A stretch of DNA of 21,839 nt from the IMG/VR virus record IMGVR_UViG_2690316311_000003. One strand, written 5' to 3'. Origin of the DNA: a virus. Taxonomy: Duplodnaviria > Heunggongvirae > Uroviricota > Caudoviricetes. A program made the position numbers and the translations under genes. The notes beneath the pieces were generated by a model. The model made no database searches. It worked only from the letters and a program-made list of their open reading frames with translations, and was not told where the DNA came from. Positions 250 to 21,277 of this stretch are shown here, one piece after another; position 1 is the stretch's first letter; each line of letters opens with the position of its first letter.

Positions 250-882
250 ATGAGAACAAATACAACAAGAAAAGCGATGCCATACATTATCCCAGAAGCA
301 GATTTCGATAGAAAACTGAACATGTCTGAGAAGAACACTAGTCACACCGAAAGCTACTTAGCGAAAGGTGTGGTTGATTTCGTTCTTCCGGGATTCACAA
401 CACCTTATGGTTATCGCCTTGTAAAATCTTGTAATGGCGATCATTACAGAATGATTACTACCAGCGATACTCCAGAAACGGTGTATGCGGTTAAGTTAAT
501 CTTTCGGGAAGATATCGTCGAAGCCAAAAGAACATGTACGCAGATCATGGTATGGCGTACGCCTAATGTTATTCATGACCGTGCTGTTCATGGTTTGCCT
601 CAGATTTTTTTTCAGTTCTTCCTAGAGCAATATGCGATCGTTGTATCTGATGAGCAACAAACAATCGATGGGAGAAGATTCTGGGAAAGAATGATTTCTT
701 GGGCTATAAACACCCCGGGATATAATGTATACGTTTCAGATGGCTCTGAAGAAGATAGACCTCTTAGCTTCATGACATCATGGGATGATTTCTATAGCCA
801 GTGGGCTGATTTCTGTTGGGGCAGTGATAAAGATGTGCATACCCACAGACTACTGGTTATAAGCAAAGATAAACTGCATTAA
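250..882 (+). CDS. Hypothetical 210-aa cytoplasmic protein; AT-rich accessory (moron) gene of unknown function
   Basis: ATG start with strong SD, about 40% GC against about 52% in neighbouring phage genes, 10 of 14 Arg codons are AGA, own promoter-like element and terminator, opposite strand to the structural operon. No motif recognised. Confidence 0.8.
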   Translation: MRTNTTRKAMPYIIPEADFDRKLNMSEKNTSHTESYLAKGVVDFVLPGFTTPYGYRLVKSCNGDHYRMITTSDTPETVYAVKLIFREDIVEAKRTCTQIMVWRTPNVIHDRAVHGLPQIFFQFFLEQYAIVVSDEQQTIDGRRFWERMISWAINTPGYNVYVSDGSEEDRPLSFMTSWDDFYSQWADFCWGSDKDVHTHRLLVISKDKLH

Positions 883-885
883 TAG

Positions 886-908
886 AAGCCCGCAGCGCGG
901 GCTTTTTT
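886..908 (+). terminator. Rho-independent terminator
   Basis: Stem AGCCCGC (887-893) / GCGGGCT (897-903) with a 3-nt loop, then a T-run to 908, starting 4 nt after the stop at 880-882. Confidence 0.75.
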
Positions 909-980: not shown

Positions 981-1142
981 ATGAAAAAAGCATTTGCTGC
1001 ACTGTTCGTTTTGTTGTCTCTGGTAGCTTCAACTCAGGCCTTTGCCGGTCGTTGTCAGCACGACAGCGATACTGCCGCTGACGGCTCCCGCTGCGGTGGG
1101 CGTTCTGCGGATTCCCGCCCGGGCGGCGGTGGCATTCGTTAA
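981..1142 (+). CDS. Small secreted peptide precursor (53 aa): Sec-type signal peptide, then a 31-aa Gly-rich mature peptide with two Cys
   Basis: MKK + hydrophobic core + AFA|G cleavage motif; mature GRCQHDSDTAADGSRCGGRSADSRPGGGGIR. The ORF track's GTG start at 909 would place the signal peptide internally, so ATG 981 is preferred. GC-rich, unlike the adjacent 210-aa gene. Confidence 0.55.
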   Translation: MKKAFAALFVLLSLVASTQAFAGRCQHDSDTAADGSRCGGRSADSRPGGGGIR

Positions 1143-1164
1143 AAACAAGGCCGCGAAAGCGGCC
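1141..1164 (-). terminator. Rho-independent terminator ending the minus-strand structural operon
   Basis: Hairpin GGCCGC-GAAA-GCGGCC (1149-1164); on the minus strand it is followed by TTGTTTTT. Plus-strand side is not T-rich, so it is mainly unidirectional. Confidence 0.65.
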
Positions 1165-1165
1165 T

Positions 1166-1177
1166 GTGACATGTCAC
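1166..1177. repeat. Perfect 12-bp palindrome GTGACATGTCAC (copy 1)
   Basis: Lies between the stop of the 46-aa ORF and the terminator hairpin. Identical copy at 20657-20668; one-mismatch copies at 18392-18403 and 15353-15364. Confidence 0.6.
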
Positions 1178-1184
1178 GCTCACG

Positions 1185-1325
1185 TTATGACAAGCCTATG
1201 TACCCTGCTACACCAGATAATATCAAAATAACTGCAACAGCAAATTCGCCATCGTCAATGATACATTTGCGGTTCATAACGCCAAGTGCAACAAGCGCAA
1301 ACACAACAAGAATAAAAGCAATCAT
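1185..1325 (-). CDS. Small hydrophobic membrane protein (46 aa, two predicted TM helices), not in the ORF track
   Basis: Hand translation: MIAFILVVFALVALGVMNRKCIIDDGEFAVAVILILSGVAGYIGLS*. SD AAGGA 6 nt upstream of ATG, starts 10 nt after the stop of the 824-aa gene, followed by the operon terminator. Confidence 0.5.
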   Translation of the reverse strand: MIAFILVVFALVALGVMNRKCIIDDGEFAVAVILILSGVAGYIGLS

Positions 1326-1334
1326 TTCTCATCC

Positions 1335-3809
1335 TTATTGCGGAGTGACATCCTGTGGTCGCCACCAGTATGTCTGGTTAAACTCTTTCTTCGAACGTTG
1401 CTCCATTTTACGCAAATAACCTGGTGAAAAATACTCCTGCATCTGGTTAAAGATCATGTGATCGAGAGCCGCCTTTAAGTACCAGAGATTCGCACCAGGC
1501 ATCAAACCTTTCCCCAGCTTCACCAGATCACCACCAGTCTGCTCACTCTTCCCTTCCACAGCATTTAACGGTATGCCCTGAGCAATCTTCACTACGTCAT
1601 CAACCAGACCAGCTACCGGGCCAAGCATCGACGCCAGCGCGCCGCTTCCGTACCTAGTGTGATCTGACAATAAAAAGTCACCGTAAAGGCCAAGACCACC
1701 ACCTTTCAGTAGAGCACCAAGCCAGAATTTTGCGGCATCTTCTCCTGTCATCTCTCGAGGATTACGACCAGACGCAAGGTCGTTAAGTTGCTGCGACAAA
1801 GCGCCAAGAATGGTCGTACTGGCAATAAACGTCGCAATATATGCCGCACGCCCACCAGCAGACGGCATACCCATAGCGCGTGACCAGTGACGCATAACAA
1901 CCGAGATAGGGAACGATTTAAACAGGAAAACACTTCTCGTTAATTCACCTTTCCATGTTCCACGCTGAATACCAGAACCGGTTATCAGTTGCTCACGTGC
2001 TCCCGGTGTAATAACAGCCATATCAACTTCTTCAGTTACGGCACCGAGCAGTTTACGCATTGCCTCAAATTTCACGCGTTCAGGCTCACCAAGATGTTTA
2101 ACTGCTGAATCAGGGATACGCATAATGCTTTCCGGTGTCAGCATCGTATTATTACCGTTCCCCCAGTCCTCCTGTTGCGCCAGCTTCCATACGCTCCAGT
2201 CTGTGTCAGTAATCCCTTTACTTTTCAGGATACGAAAATCAGAGTCATCGAGGCTACGAAGGTCTGGTGTCCGTGACACTACTTCTCCCAGGCTTCCCAT
2301 CATGGTTACGCCATAGGCGCGCTTGTGCGCATCTGACCATGCTGTAAGCCCACTGGCACGCATTACCGCCGTTGCCGCCCAACGAGACACAGACGGCCCC
2401 ATATTATCCATCGCCCAGCGGTTAACGCTGCCAAGTAGAGATTCCATCGCCAGGCCAGCGCGGCGCGCCCGCGCAAGCTCAGTACGGTTCGTTGGGTCCA
2501 TAGCTTCAAGCTGGTTGCGAAATAACTGGTTCATTGGAAGGTTGGTAACCTTCGCAGACAGATACATGGTTCCAAGATCAGAGAACGATGACAGCAACGC
2601 GGATCCGAGTCTGCTGGCAACCAGCCAGTTGCGGATATTGTCAGACCATCGCGCGATGTGCGGATTCGCTACAGGCTGTGTTTTTCCGGAAATAAAGTTG
2701 TACAAGTTCTCTGTTTTGTTCGCCAGACGCTCGACGCTACCGGTTTTACTCGGGTTAGCTGTTGCCGTTTCTGCCTTAACCTGATCAAGAAGAGAGCGGA
2801 AAACATGATCGGGGTTTGGGCCATATGTTTCCACCAGCGCAATATCTTTACTGATACCTTCCAGGTGACCGACCATGATTTCCCATAGAGAGCGATCGCC
2901 ATAAAGTTGCTGATATTGCAGATAGGAATCTGCATCTTTGAAATGTATCTGTCGTGATGCATTACCACGGTTAGCACGTACGCCGGAAATTCGCATTCCG
3001 GTATCAGTAAGCTTATTCAGCCCACCAGTAGCGATCGTGTTATAAGCCTCTCCAAGAAATGCAGACAACTCGGCATCGTTCATCAGTTGTCCATCGGCTC
3101 GGGTATAATATTTGCGATCCAGCTTACCTATAACATCGCTAACCCATTTATCTTTTGATACCGCCCCAACCTTTTCCATAGAATGATGTTGAGGGATCCC
3201 CCAGTTTTCGAGATAGCCAATGTCCCCACCAGCATCATTAAACCGGCGGCGCAGTAGATCTGTCACTTCTCTCCACGCCTTAGCACCTTTTCTTGCTTTA
3301 GCATTGCCAGTATTTTGCCCTCGCATTTCATATACCAGGTCACGCACGCCCGCTTCATCTTCAAACAGGCCAAAAAAGCGAGGATCAACTGCTTCAAATG
3401 CCTCCTGCAATTGACTCAATGCATAATCACGAGTGGCTTTTGTTCTGGATTCAACAGAGAGGAAATTCGATTTACCGTCTGCATTAAAAGCAATAGTACG
3501 GTTAAGAGCGCCAAGTTTCCCATCAGCCCCTTGATAGCTATTGATAAATTTATCCAATCTCTGACGTGCGGCTATAGTGAGGGCCACACGACGTTTCTTT
3601 AATGCCGCTTCTCGCTGTAATTCTTCAGATGCCAATTGTGCTGCACGATACAACCGTTCTGATTCGGAAAGTTGTCGCCACGACATCGGGTCATCACGAG
3701 CAATGGAGCGCATATTTCGATAAATGCGGTCTTCAATGTTCTGTATTTCTCGCGCCGTTAACGTGCGCTGCGCCGCCTGCTGGACCGCTTGTATACATTC
3801 CTGTCTCAT
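1335..3809 (-). CDS. Internal virion / ejection protein (824 aa); C-terminal hydrophobic region resembles the C-terminus of T7 gp16
   Basis: Long ORF with SD GAGAGG; helical, FKSF-containing hydrophobic C-terminal segments; last large gene of the structural operon. Confidence 0.8.
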   Translation of the reverse strand: MRQECIQAVQQAAQRTLTAREIQNIEDRIYRNMRSIARDDPMSWRQLSESERLYRAAQLASEELQREAALKKRRVALTIAARQRLDKFINSYQGADGKLGALNRTIAFNADGKSNFLSVESRTKATRDYALSQLQEAFEAVDPRFFGLFEDEAGVRDLVYEMRGQNTGNAKARKGAKAWREVTDLLRRRFNDAGGDIGYLENWGIPQHHSMEKVGAVSKDKWVSDVIGKLDRKYYTRADGQLMNDAELSAFLGEAYNTIATGGLNKLTDTGMRISGVRANRGNASRQIHFKDADSYLQYQQLYGDRSLWEIMVGHLEGISKDIALVETYGPNPDHVFRSLLDQVKAETATANPSKTGSVERLANKTENLYNFISGKTQPVANPHIARWSDNIRNWLVASRLGSALLSSFSDLGTMYLSAKVTNLPMNQLFRNQLEAMDPTNRTELARARRAGLAMESLLGSVNRWAMDNMGPSVSRWAATAVMRASGLTAWSDAHKRAYGVTMMGSLGEVVSRTPDLRSLDDSDFRILKSKGITDTDWSVWKLAQQEDWGNGNNTMLTPESIMRIPDSAVKHLGEPERVKFEAMRKLLGAVTEEVDMAVITPGAREQLITGSGIQRGTWKGELTRSVFLFKSFPISVVMRHWSRAMGMPSAGGRAAYIATFIASTTILGALSQQLNDLASGRNPREMTGEDAAKFWLGALLKGGGLGLYGDFLLSDHTRYGSGALASMLGPVAGLVDDVVKIAQGIPLNAVEGKSEQTGGDLVKLGKGLMPGANLWYLKAALDHMIFNQMQEYFSPGYLRKMEQRSKKEFNQTYWWRPQDVTPQ

Positions 3810-3814
3810 TTAAT

Positions 3815-5617
3815 TTAACCTCTCAAGAAACACGCCACAGCAACATCAAACAGGCTGGAATCCTGTATTGCCTGCTCACTTTCCCTGTTCGCTTCATCCA
3901 GTACTTCACGCGCACTGCGCGATTGTGGATTACCATCATCATCCAGCACGGTGATTATCATGTCCGGAGATTCAAGCAGCGAGTCTTCAGCTATACGCAG
4001 ATCAATATCTCCTGCCGGATCTGCCATCATTTTTTGTTCTGTCTGTTGCAATATCTTACCGGGCTCAAAAGGAGCTACTTCGTCTGGCGTCCTGACCTCT
4101 GCTGTTTTATAGAATGAAACAGCCTGAGCATTAAGTTCACTTTCTGCCTGCTGTCTCCGAGCCAGTTCTGCTCGAGCTTCAAAAAACTGACCGCCAGGCT
4201 CATGCGGTGCCAACGCGTTACGAGAAAATTCCAGGCGTTCTTGTGCCTGCCGGATTCGTTGGTCAATATCGCGAAGTCTGGCCTGTTTATCTGATCGAGC
4301 ACGAGACAAAGCTTTACCGCTACCGGTTGGCTCTTCTGCAAGAATTTGTGCACGCTGTTCAGTGAGATTTTCAATAATTCGTTGGCTATTAGCGATTTCA
4401 GACTGGTAAACCTGTCTATCTCCACGCGGCAAAAGCTGCGCGGCCTGTTCTTCAAGCAACCGATTTTCTATAGCGCGCGCCGTTACTCCATCATCTACAG
4501 ATGACAGAGCCTCATTAACTGCCTGAGACAGCAGACTCTTGCGCCCAGGAATTTCACTGAAAGATGCAGACTCAACAATGCTGGCAACGTCTACAGGTCT
4601 CCCCTGGCTAACATCAGACATAGCTTTTCGCAGAGCCTGAATGTGAGAATTGCGCGAAAGCACGTTGATCGGCACGCCGGGAGAAATATCAATTTCAGCA
4701 TGATGAGCGGCATTCGCCGCCAGTGCCGCATCGACATCAACTGGTGAAAAATTGGGGGTGCTTGTAGCCTCACCGCGAGAGTTAATAAATCTGCCGACAC
4801 CACCAAACGCCACCCCAAGAACAGCATCAATAGCGATTGCCTGTCGATCCAACACATCATACTGGTTAGCCATTTCGCTATAGCCACCATCACGAAGCGT
4901 TTTTGCAGTAAGCCCACGCTGTGCCATACCGAACGCAATATTTGTACCTGCGGCATAGGCAATATCTGGCGTTGCACGTACTGCTGTTGCTGCGGCGCGT
5001 CGCACTGAACTTTCACCCGTCCGCGCAAGCTGAGCCGCCACACCTTCCGCCAGCGCACCACCAGCACGTAACCCGAGGCTCATAGGGATCAGTGTTCCGG
5101 CACCAGCAGTAATACCCTGCACTAATCCCGCTTCCTGCGCCGTCCTGAAATCAACACCCTGTGCTGTCAGCCGTTCAAACTCAGAAAAACCCTGTAGCGA
5201 AGTTACCGCCGCAGCACCTCCGACCGGACCACCGAGCGTTGTACCGATAACAGCCTGCCCGCCCATATCGAACAACCCATAAAGAACCTGCCCGGCGGTT
5301 CCGGTTGTCGCGGCATCAGGCGTCAGCCGCTTAACCTGCTGCTCTGCTAGTTTTCTCTGCTCGGCAATGTATGAAACTGAAGTGTCATTGAGCGAGGTGT
5401 TTTCGTTAACAAACTGAGCAATCGGGGATACGATTTTATCCATCCCTGCCCAGAGCAACTGATCTGGCTTTGCCACCAGCCCGGAGTACAAACCAGACAA
5501 TGCCGCTCCTACAGCATTGTCGAAAAAACCAACATCGCTGTTAAAGCCAACTGGATTTGATGCTGCTTCGTCAAGCTGCTGATTCTGGTTTACTGGATTA
5601 AGGCCAAAGTAACTCAT
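3815..5617 (-). CDS. Internal virion protein (600 aa), Gly/Ala-rich central region
   Basis: ATGA start/stop overlap with the upstream gene; Gly/Ala-rich segments typical of podovirus core proteins. Confidence 0.8.
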   Translation of the reverse strand: MSYFGLNPVNQNQQLDEAASNPVGFNSDVGFFDNAVGAALSGLYSGLVAKPDQLLWAGMDKIVSPIAQFVNENTSLNDTSVSYIAEQRKLAEQQVKRLTPDAATTGTAGQVLYGLFDMGGQAVIGTTLGGPVGGAAAVTSLQGFSEFERLTAQGVDFRTAQEAGLVQGITAGAGTLIPMSLGLRAGGALAEGVAAQLARTGESSVRRAAATAVRATPDIAYAAGTNIAFGMAQRGLTAKTLRDGGYSEMANQYDVLDRQAIAIDAVLGVAFGGVGRFINSRGEATSTPNFSPVDVDAALAANAAHHAEIDISPGVPINVLSRNSHIQALRKAMSDVSQGRPVDVASIVESASFSEIPGRKSLLSQAVNEALSSVDDGVTARAIENRLLEEQAAQLLPRGDRQVYQSEIANSQRIIENLTEQRAQILAEEPTGSGKALSRARSDKQARLRDIDQRIRQAQERLEFSRNALAPHEPGGQFFEARAELARRQQAESELNAQAVSFYKTAEVRTPDEVAPFEPGKILQQTEQKMMADPAGDIDLRIAEDSLLESPDMIITVLDDDGNPQSRSAREVLDEANRESEQAIQDSSLFDVAVACFLRG

Positions 5618-18387: not shown

Positions 18388-18407
18388 CACCGTGGCATGT
18401 CACAAAC

Positions 18408-20552: not shown

Positions 20553-20585
20553 CGTGGTAATAGTTACCGTTGTGGTAATAGTACC
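20553..20585. repeat. Tandem direct repeat, two copies of about 16 bp containing GTGGTAATAGT, period 18 bp
   Basis: Core at 20554-20564 and 20572-20582, between the upstream terminator and the terS start codon. Confidence 0.5.
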
Positions 20586-20588
20586 ATG

Positions 20589-20615
20589 CAAAATAAAGCC
20601 GCCATAGTTGGCGGC
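20589..20615 (-). terminator. Rho-independent terminator immediately upstream of terS
   Basis: GCCGCCA-4 nt-TGGCGGC (20598-20615); on the minus strand followed by TTTATTTTG. Confidence 0.75.
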
Positions 20616-20656
20616 AGTATTCAAAACACATCAAATTCATCATGCATAATCCACTC

Positions 20657-20668
20657 GTGACATGTCAC
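20657..20668. repeat. Perfect 12-bp palindrome GTGACATGTCAC (copy 2), overlapping the stop codon of the 112-aa gene
   Basis: Identical to 1166-1177; sits 42 nt upstream of the terminator at 20589-20615. Confidence 0.6.
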
Positions 20669-21003
20669 ACTATTAATTTCGTTTCATGCCAGCCTTTAGT
20701 CACCCAGCATTGCGAGTCACCATTGCACGGGCATGAATTAACTGGAACTCTCTCGCCGCACTTACCGCAACGTTTTCTGCTGATCGATTTTATACGCCCG
20801 CGCACGCGTGCATCATCCTGGCGGATCAGTAACGCTATATACTCACCAAATTCGTAAGGCGCACGCCCGGGGCGACGCGTGGCACAGTTACGCTCCAGCA
20901 TTTCAATTTCCTGAGCATCAAGCACAATTTCCAGCTTACGCACACCAGATGCAGCTTGTCTGGCTCTCTGAGCGGCTTTGCGCTCTGCTGCTGATTTAGC
21001 CAT
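20665..21003 (-). CDS. Small basic protein with C-terminal Cys-rich zinc-ribbon-like motif (112 aa), putative DNA-binding regulator
   Basis: ATG at 21003 with SD AAGGT 8 nt upstream (ORF-track TTG at 21006); C-terminal CGKCG…CPCNGDSQC; Arg/Lys-rich N-terminus. Confidence 0.7.
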   Translation of the reverse strand: MAKSAAERKAAQRARQAASGVRKLEIVLDAQEIEMLERNCATRRPGRAPYEFGEYIALLIRQDDARVRGRIKSISRKRCGKCGERVPVNSCPCNGDSQCWVTKGWHETKLIV

Positions 21004-21277
21004 CAATATTTACCTTTATCGCGAACACCTTTACCGGTTTATCACCGAAGTGGGGATGTGTGATTGTCTTGATTTCATATCCGTCATACGGGACGTTAAT
21101 TCTGCGGCTGGAGTCGTCGCGCTTCGGATATCCCTTTGTGATAATCAGACGGTCATACTTACGGTTAACGAGGCGCTTTTTCCAGTAGTCATTACACAGG
21201 CGATACTCTTCCGTTTTCTCTCCGCGAATCATGGCATCGAAGTATTCACCTTTGACGGCAAGTTGCAGGTTAGCCAT
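20996..21277 (-). CDS. ASCH / DUF3850-like (PUA-fold) small protein, 93 aa
   Basis: N-terminal LAVKGEYFDAMIRGEKTEEYR resembles the ASCH-like pattern K-x-x-YF-x-A-x-x-x-G-x-KT-x-E-x-R; SD AGGAGG 6 nt upstream. Confidence 0.7.
   Translation of the reverse strand: MANLQLAVKGEYFDAMIRGEKTEEYRLCNDYWKKRLVNRKYDRLIITKGYPKRDDSSRRINVPYDGYEIKTITHPHFGDKPVKVFAIKVNIDG

Follow-up and report, generated by a model that had tools for sequence, protein, structure and literature searches.

A short predicted membrane-hairpin gene in an exchangeable cassette slot behind the last ejection-protein gene of epsilon15/phiV10-like prophages

The window analyzed here, the whole stretch of 21,839 nucleotides of the IMG/VR virus record IMGVR_UViG_2690316311_000003, resembles the Uetakevirus (epsilon15-like) phages; phiV10, PAS61 and E. 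coli phages related to them share 98–99% nucleotide identity with it throughout the region, and a 321-bp query around the open reading frame (ORF) described below finds a prophage with 100% identity in E. coli strain 2015C-4944. Judged by these identities, the host element is an epsilon15/phiV10-like E. coli prophage (Uetakevirus). Its late genes lie on the minus strand and comprise the small and large terminase, portal, protease and major head protein genes, then those of the large internal virion proteins of 862 residues (with a lysozyme-like region), 600 residues and 824 residues. The last of these proteins shares 99% identity with its counterparts in phiV10-type phages and, over its C-terminal 321 residues, 31% identity (E=1e-37) with epsilon15 gp17, which has been assigned by published profile analysis as a homologue of T7 IVP-D (internal virion protein D)/gp16 (PMC4819975). 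Given this homology and the membership of the 824-residue protein in PHROG 684, "last ejection-protein gene", as its gene was called in the preliminary description, is a reasonable phrase; the gene is also referred to as gp17 below.

An ORF of 46 codons sits tightly behind gp17 (Table 1). Its ATG begins at the tenth base past the stop codon of the 824-residue gene, leaving 9 nt between the two genes, so that the position, the length and the spacing previously given for it are matched exactly. The Shine-Dalgarno sequence UAAGGA overlaps the stop codon of the upstream gene and stands 6 nt 5' of the AUG with a six-base match to the consensus, which bears out its description as well placed; TAAGGA is kept in nearly all compared loci. 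Downstream of the ORF, an intrinsic terminator combines a seven-pair G+C-rich stem and a UUUC loop with the stretch UGUUUUU (centroid structure of -13.8 kcal/mol), and the ORF is indeed the last gene before the operon terminator. This element is already annotated as such in phiV10 and epsilon15. The stem (GGCCGC/GCGGCC) is kept in most loci, while the loop differs (TTTC, CTCTTG, AATA, AGAA, AACA and others). The virion-structure transcription unit ends with the 46-codon gene as its last cistron, and the arrangement of the junction indicates translation from its own Shine-Dalgarno sequence, overlapping the stop codon of the IVP-D-type gene. Two other readings of the junction were considered and rejected. 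A 55-residue form with an upstream start, called in some databases, is excluded in the lineage of the window by an in-frame TGA 6 nt before the ATG, and such forms are confined to lineages whose spacer has one extra base. Read-through of gp17 into the ORF is excluded in the window, where the two share the same frame but are separated by two stop codons (TAA and TGA); in the SPN1S lineage the ORF is out of frame with gp17.

Table 1. Features of the locus, copies of the palindrome in the window, and cassettes found between the gp17 stop codon and the palindrome in related contigs
Feature	Position in window	Length	Strand	Description	Basis or occurrence
824-aa internal virion (ejection) protein gene	1335..3809		-	PHROG 684 (virion structural protein), epsilon15 gp17 homologue; ends in TAA	
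Gene junction	1326..1337		-	TAA of the 824-aa gene (1337..1335) and 9-nt spacer GGATGAGAA	sequence
46-aa ORF	1185..1325	46 aa	-	ATG to TAA; product MIAFILVVFALVALGVMNRKCIIDDGEFAVAVILILSGVAGYIGLS	sequence, PHROG 7892, annotation of relatives, pN/pS, AlphaFold2
Palindrome, perfect	1166..1177	12 bp	.	GTGACATGTCAC; right edge of the cassette slot	between ORF stop and terminator
Intrinsic terminator	1141..1165		-	stem-loop AGGCCGC-UUUC-GCGGCCU (1165..1148) and U-tract (1147..1141)	folding, annotation of relatives
Palindrome, second perfect copy	20657..20668			right after the TAG of the 113-aa 'transcriptional regulator' gene (20668..21006; PHROG 536)	
Palindrome, one-mismatch copy	18392..18403			directly after the hairpin following the large terminase gene	
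Palindrome, one-mismatch copy	15353..15364			inside a coding region; may be chance	
Type I cassette		157 nt		46-aa gene	29 loci (5 frameshifted)
Type II cassette		488 nt		57-aa two-helix protein and 98-aa multi-helix protein (PHROG 3075)	about 40 loci
Type III cassette		596 nt		41-aa hydrophobic peptide and 126-aa lipoprotein with LVGC lipobox (PHROG 3716)	9 loci

The ORF had been introduced as unannotated, which holds for an ORF track with a 60-residue cut-off but not for the public records of phiV10, SPN1S, RefSeq and PHROG. The gene is in fact already known: its annotation dates from the phiV10 genome record, where it appears as PhiV10p21 (YP_512275), a 'putative integral membrane protein; two predicted transmembrane helices', with 97.8% identity. 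The 46-residue protein is 84.8% identical to SPN1S_0020 ('putative membrane protein'), the identical protein is held in RefSeq as WP_000559990.1 (annotated at a 100% nucleotide match in E. coli 2015C-4944), and PHROG 7892 is matched with E=5.5e-33, residues 1–46 falling on profile positions 1–46 of 46. PhiV10p21, SPN1S_0020 and WP_000559990.1 represent the same gene in the same place after the 824-residue virion protein, with the same terminator, and nothing material differs between them; the database entries give only 'putative integral membrane protein' or 'hypothetical protein', without a function. Nearly all of the 47 IMG/VR loci have the gene right after an IVP-D-type gene, as is also the case in phiV10, SPN1S and the remote homologue L143.

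The region was gathered from 47 IMG/VR contigs together with phiV10, SPN1S and one Citrobacter braakii genome. An intact ORF of exactly 46 codons is present in 38 of 51 sequences, in 22 distinct DNA versions, among which the variable sites at codon positions 1, 2 and 3 number 17, 6 and 27, respectively, with a pooled pN/pS of 0.21. Conservation of the reading frame in related phages, as seen from synonymous versus non-synonymous changes, had been named beforehand as the observation on which the proposed gene could fail, and this ratio favours the gene. Between the window and SPN1S there are 11 synonymous and 7 non-synonymous differences, the latter conservative, giving a dN/dS of 0.18 with no indel, and more than 40 loci keep the start codon, the Shine-Dalgarno sequence and the length. 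The substitution pattern thus indicates that the 46-codon ORF is a genuine protein-coding gene under purifying selection. A plus-strand ORF of 125 codons (1042..1419) also scores a pN/pS of 0.18, because its wobble positions coincide with those of the minus-strand 46-codon ORF. It was rejected as a real gene: it spans the terminator, enters gp17 and is interrupted by stop codons in relatives in which the minus-strand ORF is intact. Indeed, stop codons interrupt the plus-strand frame in phiV10 and in two of the contigs (L027 and L053); in three others (L046, L054 and L029) this frame ends just upstream of the region, and the minus-strand ORF is open in all six.

Hydropathy analysis places two hydrophobic segments at residues 2–17 and 28–45 (GRAVY 1.78), and AlphaFold2, run on a 22-sequence alignment, models helices at residues 2–19 and 25–45 with a mean pLDDT of 91.7. 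The agreement of the two upholds the earlier view of a two-helix membrane protein; as modelled, the product is a 46-residue helical hairpin made of two hydrophobic helices and a charged turn. The turn, (M/L)N-R-K-x-I-I-(D/E)-D-G-E-F, is strongly conserved and forms the most conserved part of the protein, K20, I22, I23, D25, E27 and F28 being invariant over the 22 variants, and an RKG(I/V)I motif is retained in the most distant family members. The C-terminus (...GYIGLS) carries no charged tail. The protein probably inserts into the inner membrane, and its turn is probably cytoplasmic by the positive-inside rule (R19, K20), the orientation being uncertain.

Concerning expression, no sigma-70-like site matching at 9 or more of 12 positions is present on the coding strand within 400 nt upstream of the ORF, and the only promoter-like site nearby lies on the coding strand inside the ORF itself. 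Since the 9-nt gap is too short for a promoter and the 400 nt upstream show no detectable one, the 46-residue protein is, on this sequence evidence, probably made late, together with the ejection proteins. The synonymous diversity of gp17 falls over its last 20 codons (0.13 vs. about 0.29), a dip that may reflect a constraint from the ribosome-binding site, homogenization at a recombination flank, or a weak promoter or other internal signal.

In order to characterize the surroundings of the gene, 80 IMG/VR contigs with a gp17 C-terminus at least 97% identical to that of the window were compared; two of them end before the palindrome that precedes the terminator, leaving 78 that could be scored. 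In all, IMG/VR contains 267 loci with this gp17. In all 78, the stretch from the gp17 TAA to this palindrome is occupied by one of three unrelated cassettes, designated types I to III (Table 1). All three start 8–9 nt past the TAA and end at the palindrome, and the edges of the slot are sharp: on the left, identity stops at the TAA, and on the right it returns with the first palindrome base. The last cassette gene of types II and III has its TGA stop codon within the palindrome. The G+C content of the cassettes is 0.38–0.43 vs. 0.51 for gp17. All three types encode small membrane proteins, the 46-codon gene being the smallest occupant. The same slot is filled by yet other unrelated genes in epsilon15 (gp18, 64 residues, two helices) and in Enterobacter phage Tyrion (gp19, 103 residues, two helices), both of which end at the same palindrome and terminator. 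Alignment of the profile of the 46-residue protein with hhalign against the type II 57-residue protein, epsilon15 gp18 and Tyrion gp19 gave no homology (probability below 1%). What epsilon15 gp18, Tyrion gp19 and the type II and III cassettes (in phiv142-3-like prophages) have in common with the present gene is the slot and a small hydrophobic membrane protein, mostly two-helix, as its first product, starting 8–13 nt after the IVP-D stop codon or, for epsilon15 gp18, overlapping it; on the other hand, they differ in size (41–103 residues), and some have a second gene. Moreover, the metagenomic contig L144 carries a Tyrion-type 92-residue protein and a 45-residue homologue of the present protein in tandem behind a very different IVP-D of 1129 residues, the 92-residue gene separating IVP-D from the homologue, which implies that the cassettes are not simple alleles of one function.

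More distant relatives have other arrangements. In BcepC6B and VP2 no such gene is present and the tail fibre gene follows IVP-D directly, and in Pseudomonas phage YA3 and Yersinia phage YeP6 a gene on the opposite strand comes after IVP-D. Frameshifted and stop-loss copies of the 46-codon gene also occur, and these show that it is dispensable, at least in prophages. Being swapped for unrelated genes among phages with near-identical gp17, missing in distant relatives and frameshifted in some copies, the gene appears from these comparisons to be an exchangeable accessory (moron-type) gene and not a core virion, assembly or lysis gene. That the ORF is a real gene, that its product is a hairpin and that it forms an accessory cassette can together be held with high confidence.

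The family to which the protein belongs is small. A search of 5.8 billion clustered proteins recovered 42 clusters, 74–98% identical and all from Escherichia, Salmonella, Citrobacter and Hafnia, and when 1.84 billion representative proteins were searched exhaustively with the profile, only 6 representatives emerged, each belonging to this same family. The gene is carried by 54 of 5,426 complete E. coli genomes, and a scan of one genome per species yielded a single locus, in Citrobacter braakii. As far as these searches reach, the family has very few members, all of them in Uetakevirus prophages of Enterobacteriaceae. The hosts of these phages have different O-antigens and include E. coli O157 and O146, Salmonella Typhimurium and Heidelberg, Citrobacter and Hafnia. 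No Pfam or NCBIfam family, holin and toxin families included, is matched by the protein (E up to 10 or 0.1), nor is any PADLOC model of anti-phage defence (E up to 10) or any holin or exclusion family of PHROG, and, apart from generic helical hairpins, only the family itself was recovered by the sequence search of the PDB and the Foldseek search of viral models (BFVD). In the literature, no paper was found on the protein accessions, on the palindrome sequence or on epsilon15 gp18.

The position of the gene invites comparison with sieA of phage P22, which directly follows the ejection gene 16; its product, a protein of the inner membrane, blocks the delivery of DNA, and mutations that escape it are found in the ejection proteins (PMC10883804). 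SieA has 162–164 residues, three predicted transmembrane helices, the conserved cytoplasmic motif FxRYPxEAxxFNK and its own promoter PsieA, active in lysogens (PMC10883804). Like sieA, the present gene directly follows the last ejection-protein gene, 9 nt after the IVP-D homologue and before the tailspike region, and its product is a predicted inner-membrane protein. Unlike SieA proteins (about 160–200 residues, three or four helices), it has 46 residues, two helices and no detectable similarity to them; its gene has no detectable promoter, and the ejection proteins upstream are of the T7-IVP type and not of the P22 type. The SieA motif is absent from the 46-residue sequence and from 48 homologues, so that by sequence the protein falls outside SieA on every criterion, be it size, helix number or motif. 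Other small inner-membrane proteins that stop incoming phage DNA are T4 Imm (about 83 residues, two helices), an early gene product, and HK97 gp15, which is expressed from the prophage; the present gene differs from both in that it appears to be late and in that its product has no match to such families in Pfam, PHROG or PADLOC.

If the analogy holds, the hairpin, made late, would lie in the inner membrane and would hinder the formation of the inner-membrane channel, or the entry of DNA, by incoming phages of the same ejection-protein type, and the specific contact surface would be the conserved turn and not the helices. The roles suggested in the preliminary description (superinfection exclusion, modulation of ejection or lysis, a toxic peptide) are speculative. 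The position of the gene and the behaviour of the cassettes favour, by analogy, an accessory, conflict-type role such as exclusion. The type III cassette, which pairs a small membrane peptide with a lipoprotein, was counted on the same side, lipoproteins being a common kind of phage exclusion protein. That the gene occurs across hosts with different O-antigens speaks for a conserved or phage-encoded target and not a serotype-specific one. Against exclusion stand the absence of similarity to any known exclusion or defence family in Pfam, NCBIfam, PADLOC, PDB and BFVD, and late-only expression, which would fit less well than expression from the prophage. Indeed, with no independent promoter found, expression in the lysogen, as needed for classical exclusion, is not supported. 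Furthermore, gp17 is near-identical in phages that have swapped cassettes, so that the small protein and the type of its supposed target do not vary together. The tandem arrangement in L144 and the dispensability seen from the frameshifted and stop-loss copies count on this side as well. By analogy, action as an inner-membrane exclusion factor would still be the single most likely role, a speculative assignment and taken by itself a somewhat unlikely one. The statement as a whole, a genuine accessory hairpin gene with a late role in exclusion, is offered as tentative. An inhibitor of O-antigen polymerase like epsilon15 gp22 was set aside as a candidate: the O-antigens of the hosts are unrelated, and the serotype-conversion genes are located beyond the tailspike gene.

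Among the other functions that could be assigned to such a protein, the one ranked next in our speculative order, below exclusion and above an effect on lysis, is modulation of a host inner-membrane complex such as a transporter, a sensor kinase or the machinery of envelope biogenesis. The size, the hydrophobicity and the conserved charged turn of the present protein fit what is generally seen in small regulatory membrane proteins of bacteria, of which MgrB and AcrZ are examples. Its presence across genera whatever the O-antigen type and the moron-like features of its gene, which is AT-rich, exchangeable and narrowly distributed, also speak for such a role. The protein has no homology to any family of this kind, however, and lysogenic conversion would need expression from the prophage, for which no promoter was found; we regard an MgrB/AcrZ-like function as unlikely. 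A toxic, depolarizing peptide would be a variant of it; type I toxins, however, usually consist of a single helix and have an antisense RNA partner, and no partner is evident here. As for a Hok/Gef-type toxin in particular, the protein has no Pfam or NCBIfam match and two helices, and the region holds no Rfam family.

A modulator of lysis timing, that is a late holin, antiholin or pinholin-like protein altering membrane energization or holin triggering, would suit the probable synthesis of the protein late with the virion genes, from a gene that follows at 9 nt with no promoter found, and its very hydrophobic hairpin with small-residue motifs (SGVAGYIG) suitable for helix packing. The Tyrion-type slot protein is even holin-like in outline, with two helices and a highly charged C-terminal tail (WLKRKKLEHLEKIKELKK). 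The 46-residue protein, by contrast, ends in GLS without a hydrophilic charged C-terminus, shows no dual-start motif and has no endolysin gene adjacent to its own. Moreover, these phages have a complete lysis cassette on the far side of the tailspike gene, at a distance of about 5 kb (PhiV10p27-30a in phiV10, gp23-27 in epsilon15), comprising a three-helix membrane protein, a DUF754 holin, an endolysin and Rz/Rz1. This separate cassette and the missing charged tail make a holin role unlikely and, with the replacement of the gene by unrelated cassettes in sister phages and the frameshifts in some copies, leave lysis modulation as a whole quite improbable. Still further down, the protein might help the upstream ejection protein in virion assembly or ejection, as a membrane chaperone or as a minor virion component, in keeping with its tight translational coupling to the IVP-D homologue and with its co-inheritance in all loci with the family. 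Unrelated cassettes are nevertheless found in phages with gp17 C-termini at least 97% identical, any such gene is missing in more distant relatives, and 5 of 29 copies are frameshifted. To our knowledge, gp18, which occupies the equivalent slot in epsilon15, is likewise not among the reported virion proteins of that phage, and a helper function of this kind appears highly improbable.

The gene itself adds little to what is recorded, as the phiV10 annotation, the PHROG family and the RefSeq accession already exist. The new context is given by the cassette slot and the operon-end palindrome, which provide a handle on the exchange of small membrane-protein genes and on the punctuation of transcription units. 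Phages of the phiV10 and SPN1S types are used and engineered for the detection and control of E. coli O157 and Salmonella, and an exclusion or membrane-active factor in their late operon, if it is one, would affect host range, the design of cocktails and the behaviour of lysogens.

Most loci carry the perfect 12-bp palindrome at the right edge of the slot, among them epsilon15 and Tyrion with their unrelated slot genes; it is absent from two more divergent contigs. By our own estimate, chance would give about 0.003 perfect copies in the window. The second perfect copy (Table 1) precedes a terminator-like hairpin and the small terminase gene by about 40 nt. Perfect copies stand at the same three operon ends in epsilon15 and SPN1S, and phiV10 has perfect copies at two of the three and a one-mismatch copy at the third. 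The palindrome could be the site of a dimeric DNA-binding protein, a signal at the RNA 3' end or an anchor for recombination. A wider conjecture, which we consider rather improbable, is that the slot between the gp17 stop codon and the palindrome serves as a dedicated diversity locus, in which cassettes directed against the T7-IVP-type channels of competitors would be swapped, the 46-residue hairpin being the minimal member of a new exclusion class and the palindrome an undescribed regulatory or recombination signal. In phiV10 as in SPN1S, GTGACATGTCAC is the only perfect palindrome of 12 bp that recurs, and in SPN1S a fourth copy, with one mismatch, lies over the stop codon of the Rz gene.

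The sequence GTGACATGTCAC, a 12-bp perfect palindrome, is repeated at the 3' ends of transcription units in Uetakevirus genomes, where it adjoins terminator hairpins, and the TGA stop codon of the last gene of the unit often lies inside it. By our own estimate, approximately 0.003 perfect copies would be expected in the window by chance. No other 12-bp palindrome recurs in phiV10 and SPN1S, and a literature search with the sequence of the palindrome found no paper containing it. On the minus strand at window positions 20560..20670, the gene of the 113-aa 'transcriptional regulator' is followed by the palindrome, then by the hairpin GCCGCCAACTATGGCGGC and then by TTTATTTT, the whole array being located just 5' of the small terminase gene. 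By analogy, this arrangement recalls a late regulator combined with a late promoter and a terminator, as in Q-like antitermination.

The interval between the stop codon of gp17 (the 824-aa internal virion protein) and the palindrome is occupied by three unrelated AT-rich cassettes among near-identical phages (IMG/VR contigs L063–L142, whose gp17 C-termini are at least 97% identical to that of the window). These cassettes encode either the 46-aa protein, or two membrane proteins of 57 and 98 aa, or a 41-aa peptide together with a 126-aa lipoprotein. Further, different two-helix proteins are found in the same slot in epsilon15 and Tyrion. The edges of the cassettes are sharp and correspond, on the left, to the gp17 stop codon and, on the right, to the first base of the palindrome. 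The coordinates of these and other features are listed in the table.

Coordinates of the palindrome copies, of further cassette-slot loci and of other genes
Feature	Position	Strand	Assignment
Palindrome, window	1166..1177, 20657..20668, 18392..18403, 15353..15364 (last two with one mismatch)		
Palindrome, epsilon15	2142, 19517, 39612		
Palindrome, SPN1S	2174, 19662, 26722, 38653		
Slot locus, L003	3585..3758 and 3275..3631	minus	
Slot locus, L005	2479..2790		
Slot locus, L004	7327..7521		
53-aa protein gene, window	981..1142	+	PHROG 14503, 'membrane associated protein'
210-aa protein gene, window	250..882	+	PHROG 1349, function unassigned
600-aa internal virion protein, window	3815..5617	minus	PHROG 1145, epsilon15 gp16 homologue
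tRNA-Arg gene (anticodon TCT), window	17741..17817	+	
113-aa 'transcriptional regulator' gene, window	20668..21006		PHROG 536

Over the final 20 codons of the gp17 gene (window 1335..1400), synonymous diversity is 0.13 among 36 distinct sequences, compared with an average of approximately 0.29 over its last 300 codons. This dip could reflect a constraint imposed by the downstream ribosome-binding site, homogenization through cassette recombination, or a signal embedded in the coding sequence.

In one lineage (L047–L050, corresponding to contigs L124, L128, L132, and L133) three changes are packed into about 170 nt: the Shine-Dalgarno sequence is altered from GGA to GGG, the small ORF is frameshifted near codon 41, and the palindrome carries one mismatch (GTGACATGCCAC). 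The entire cassette region looks as if it were decaying jointly in this lineage.

Two plus-strand genes converge on the terminator located downstream of the 46-aa gene. The product of the first one is 53 aa long, and has an N-terminus resembling a signal peptide (MKKAFAALFVLLSLVASTQAFA...) and a tail rich in cysteine and glycine; the second one, encoding a 210-aa protein, possesses its own terminator at about 888..905. Matches to a stretch of DNA that contains the terminator as well as the 3' end of the 53-aa gene occur in some 550 complete E. coli genomes, which far outnumber the carriers of the 46-aa gene.

In its annotation of the matching E. coli chromosome, RefSeq gives the 600-aa internal virion protein the name 'AAA family ATPase', which looks like a doubtful automatic label for an ejection or core protein. 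Finally, the tRNA-Arg gene is situated between the terminase and portal genes, on the opposite strand.
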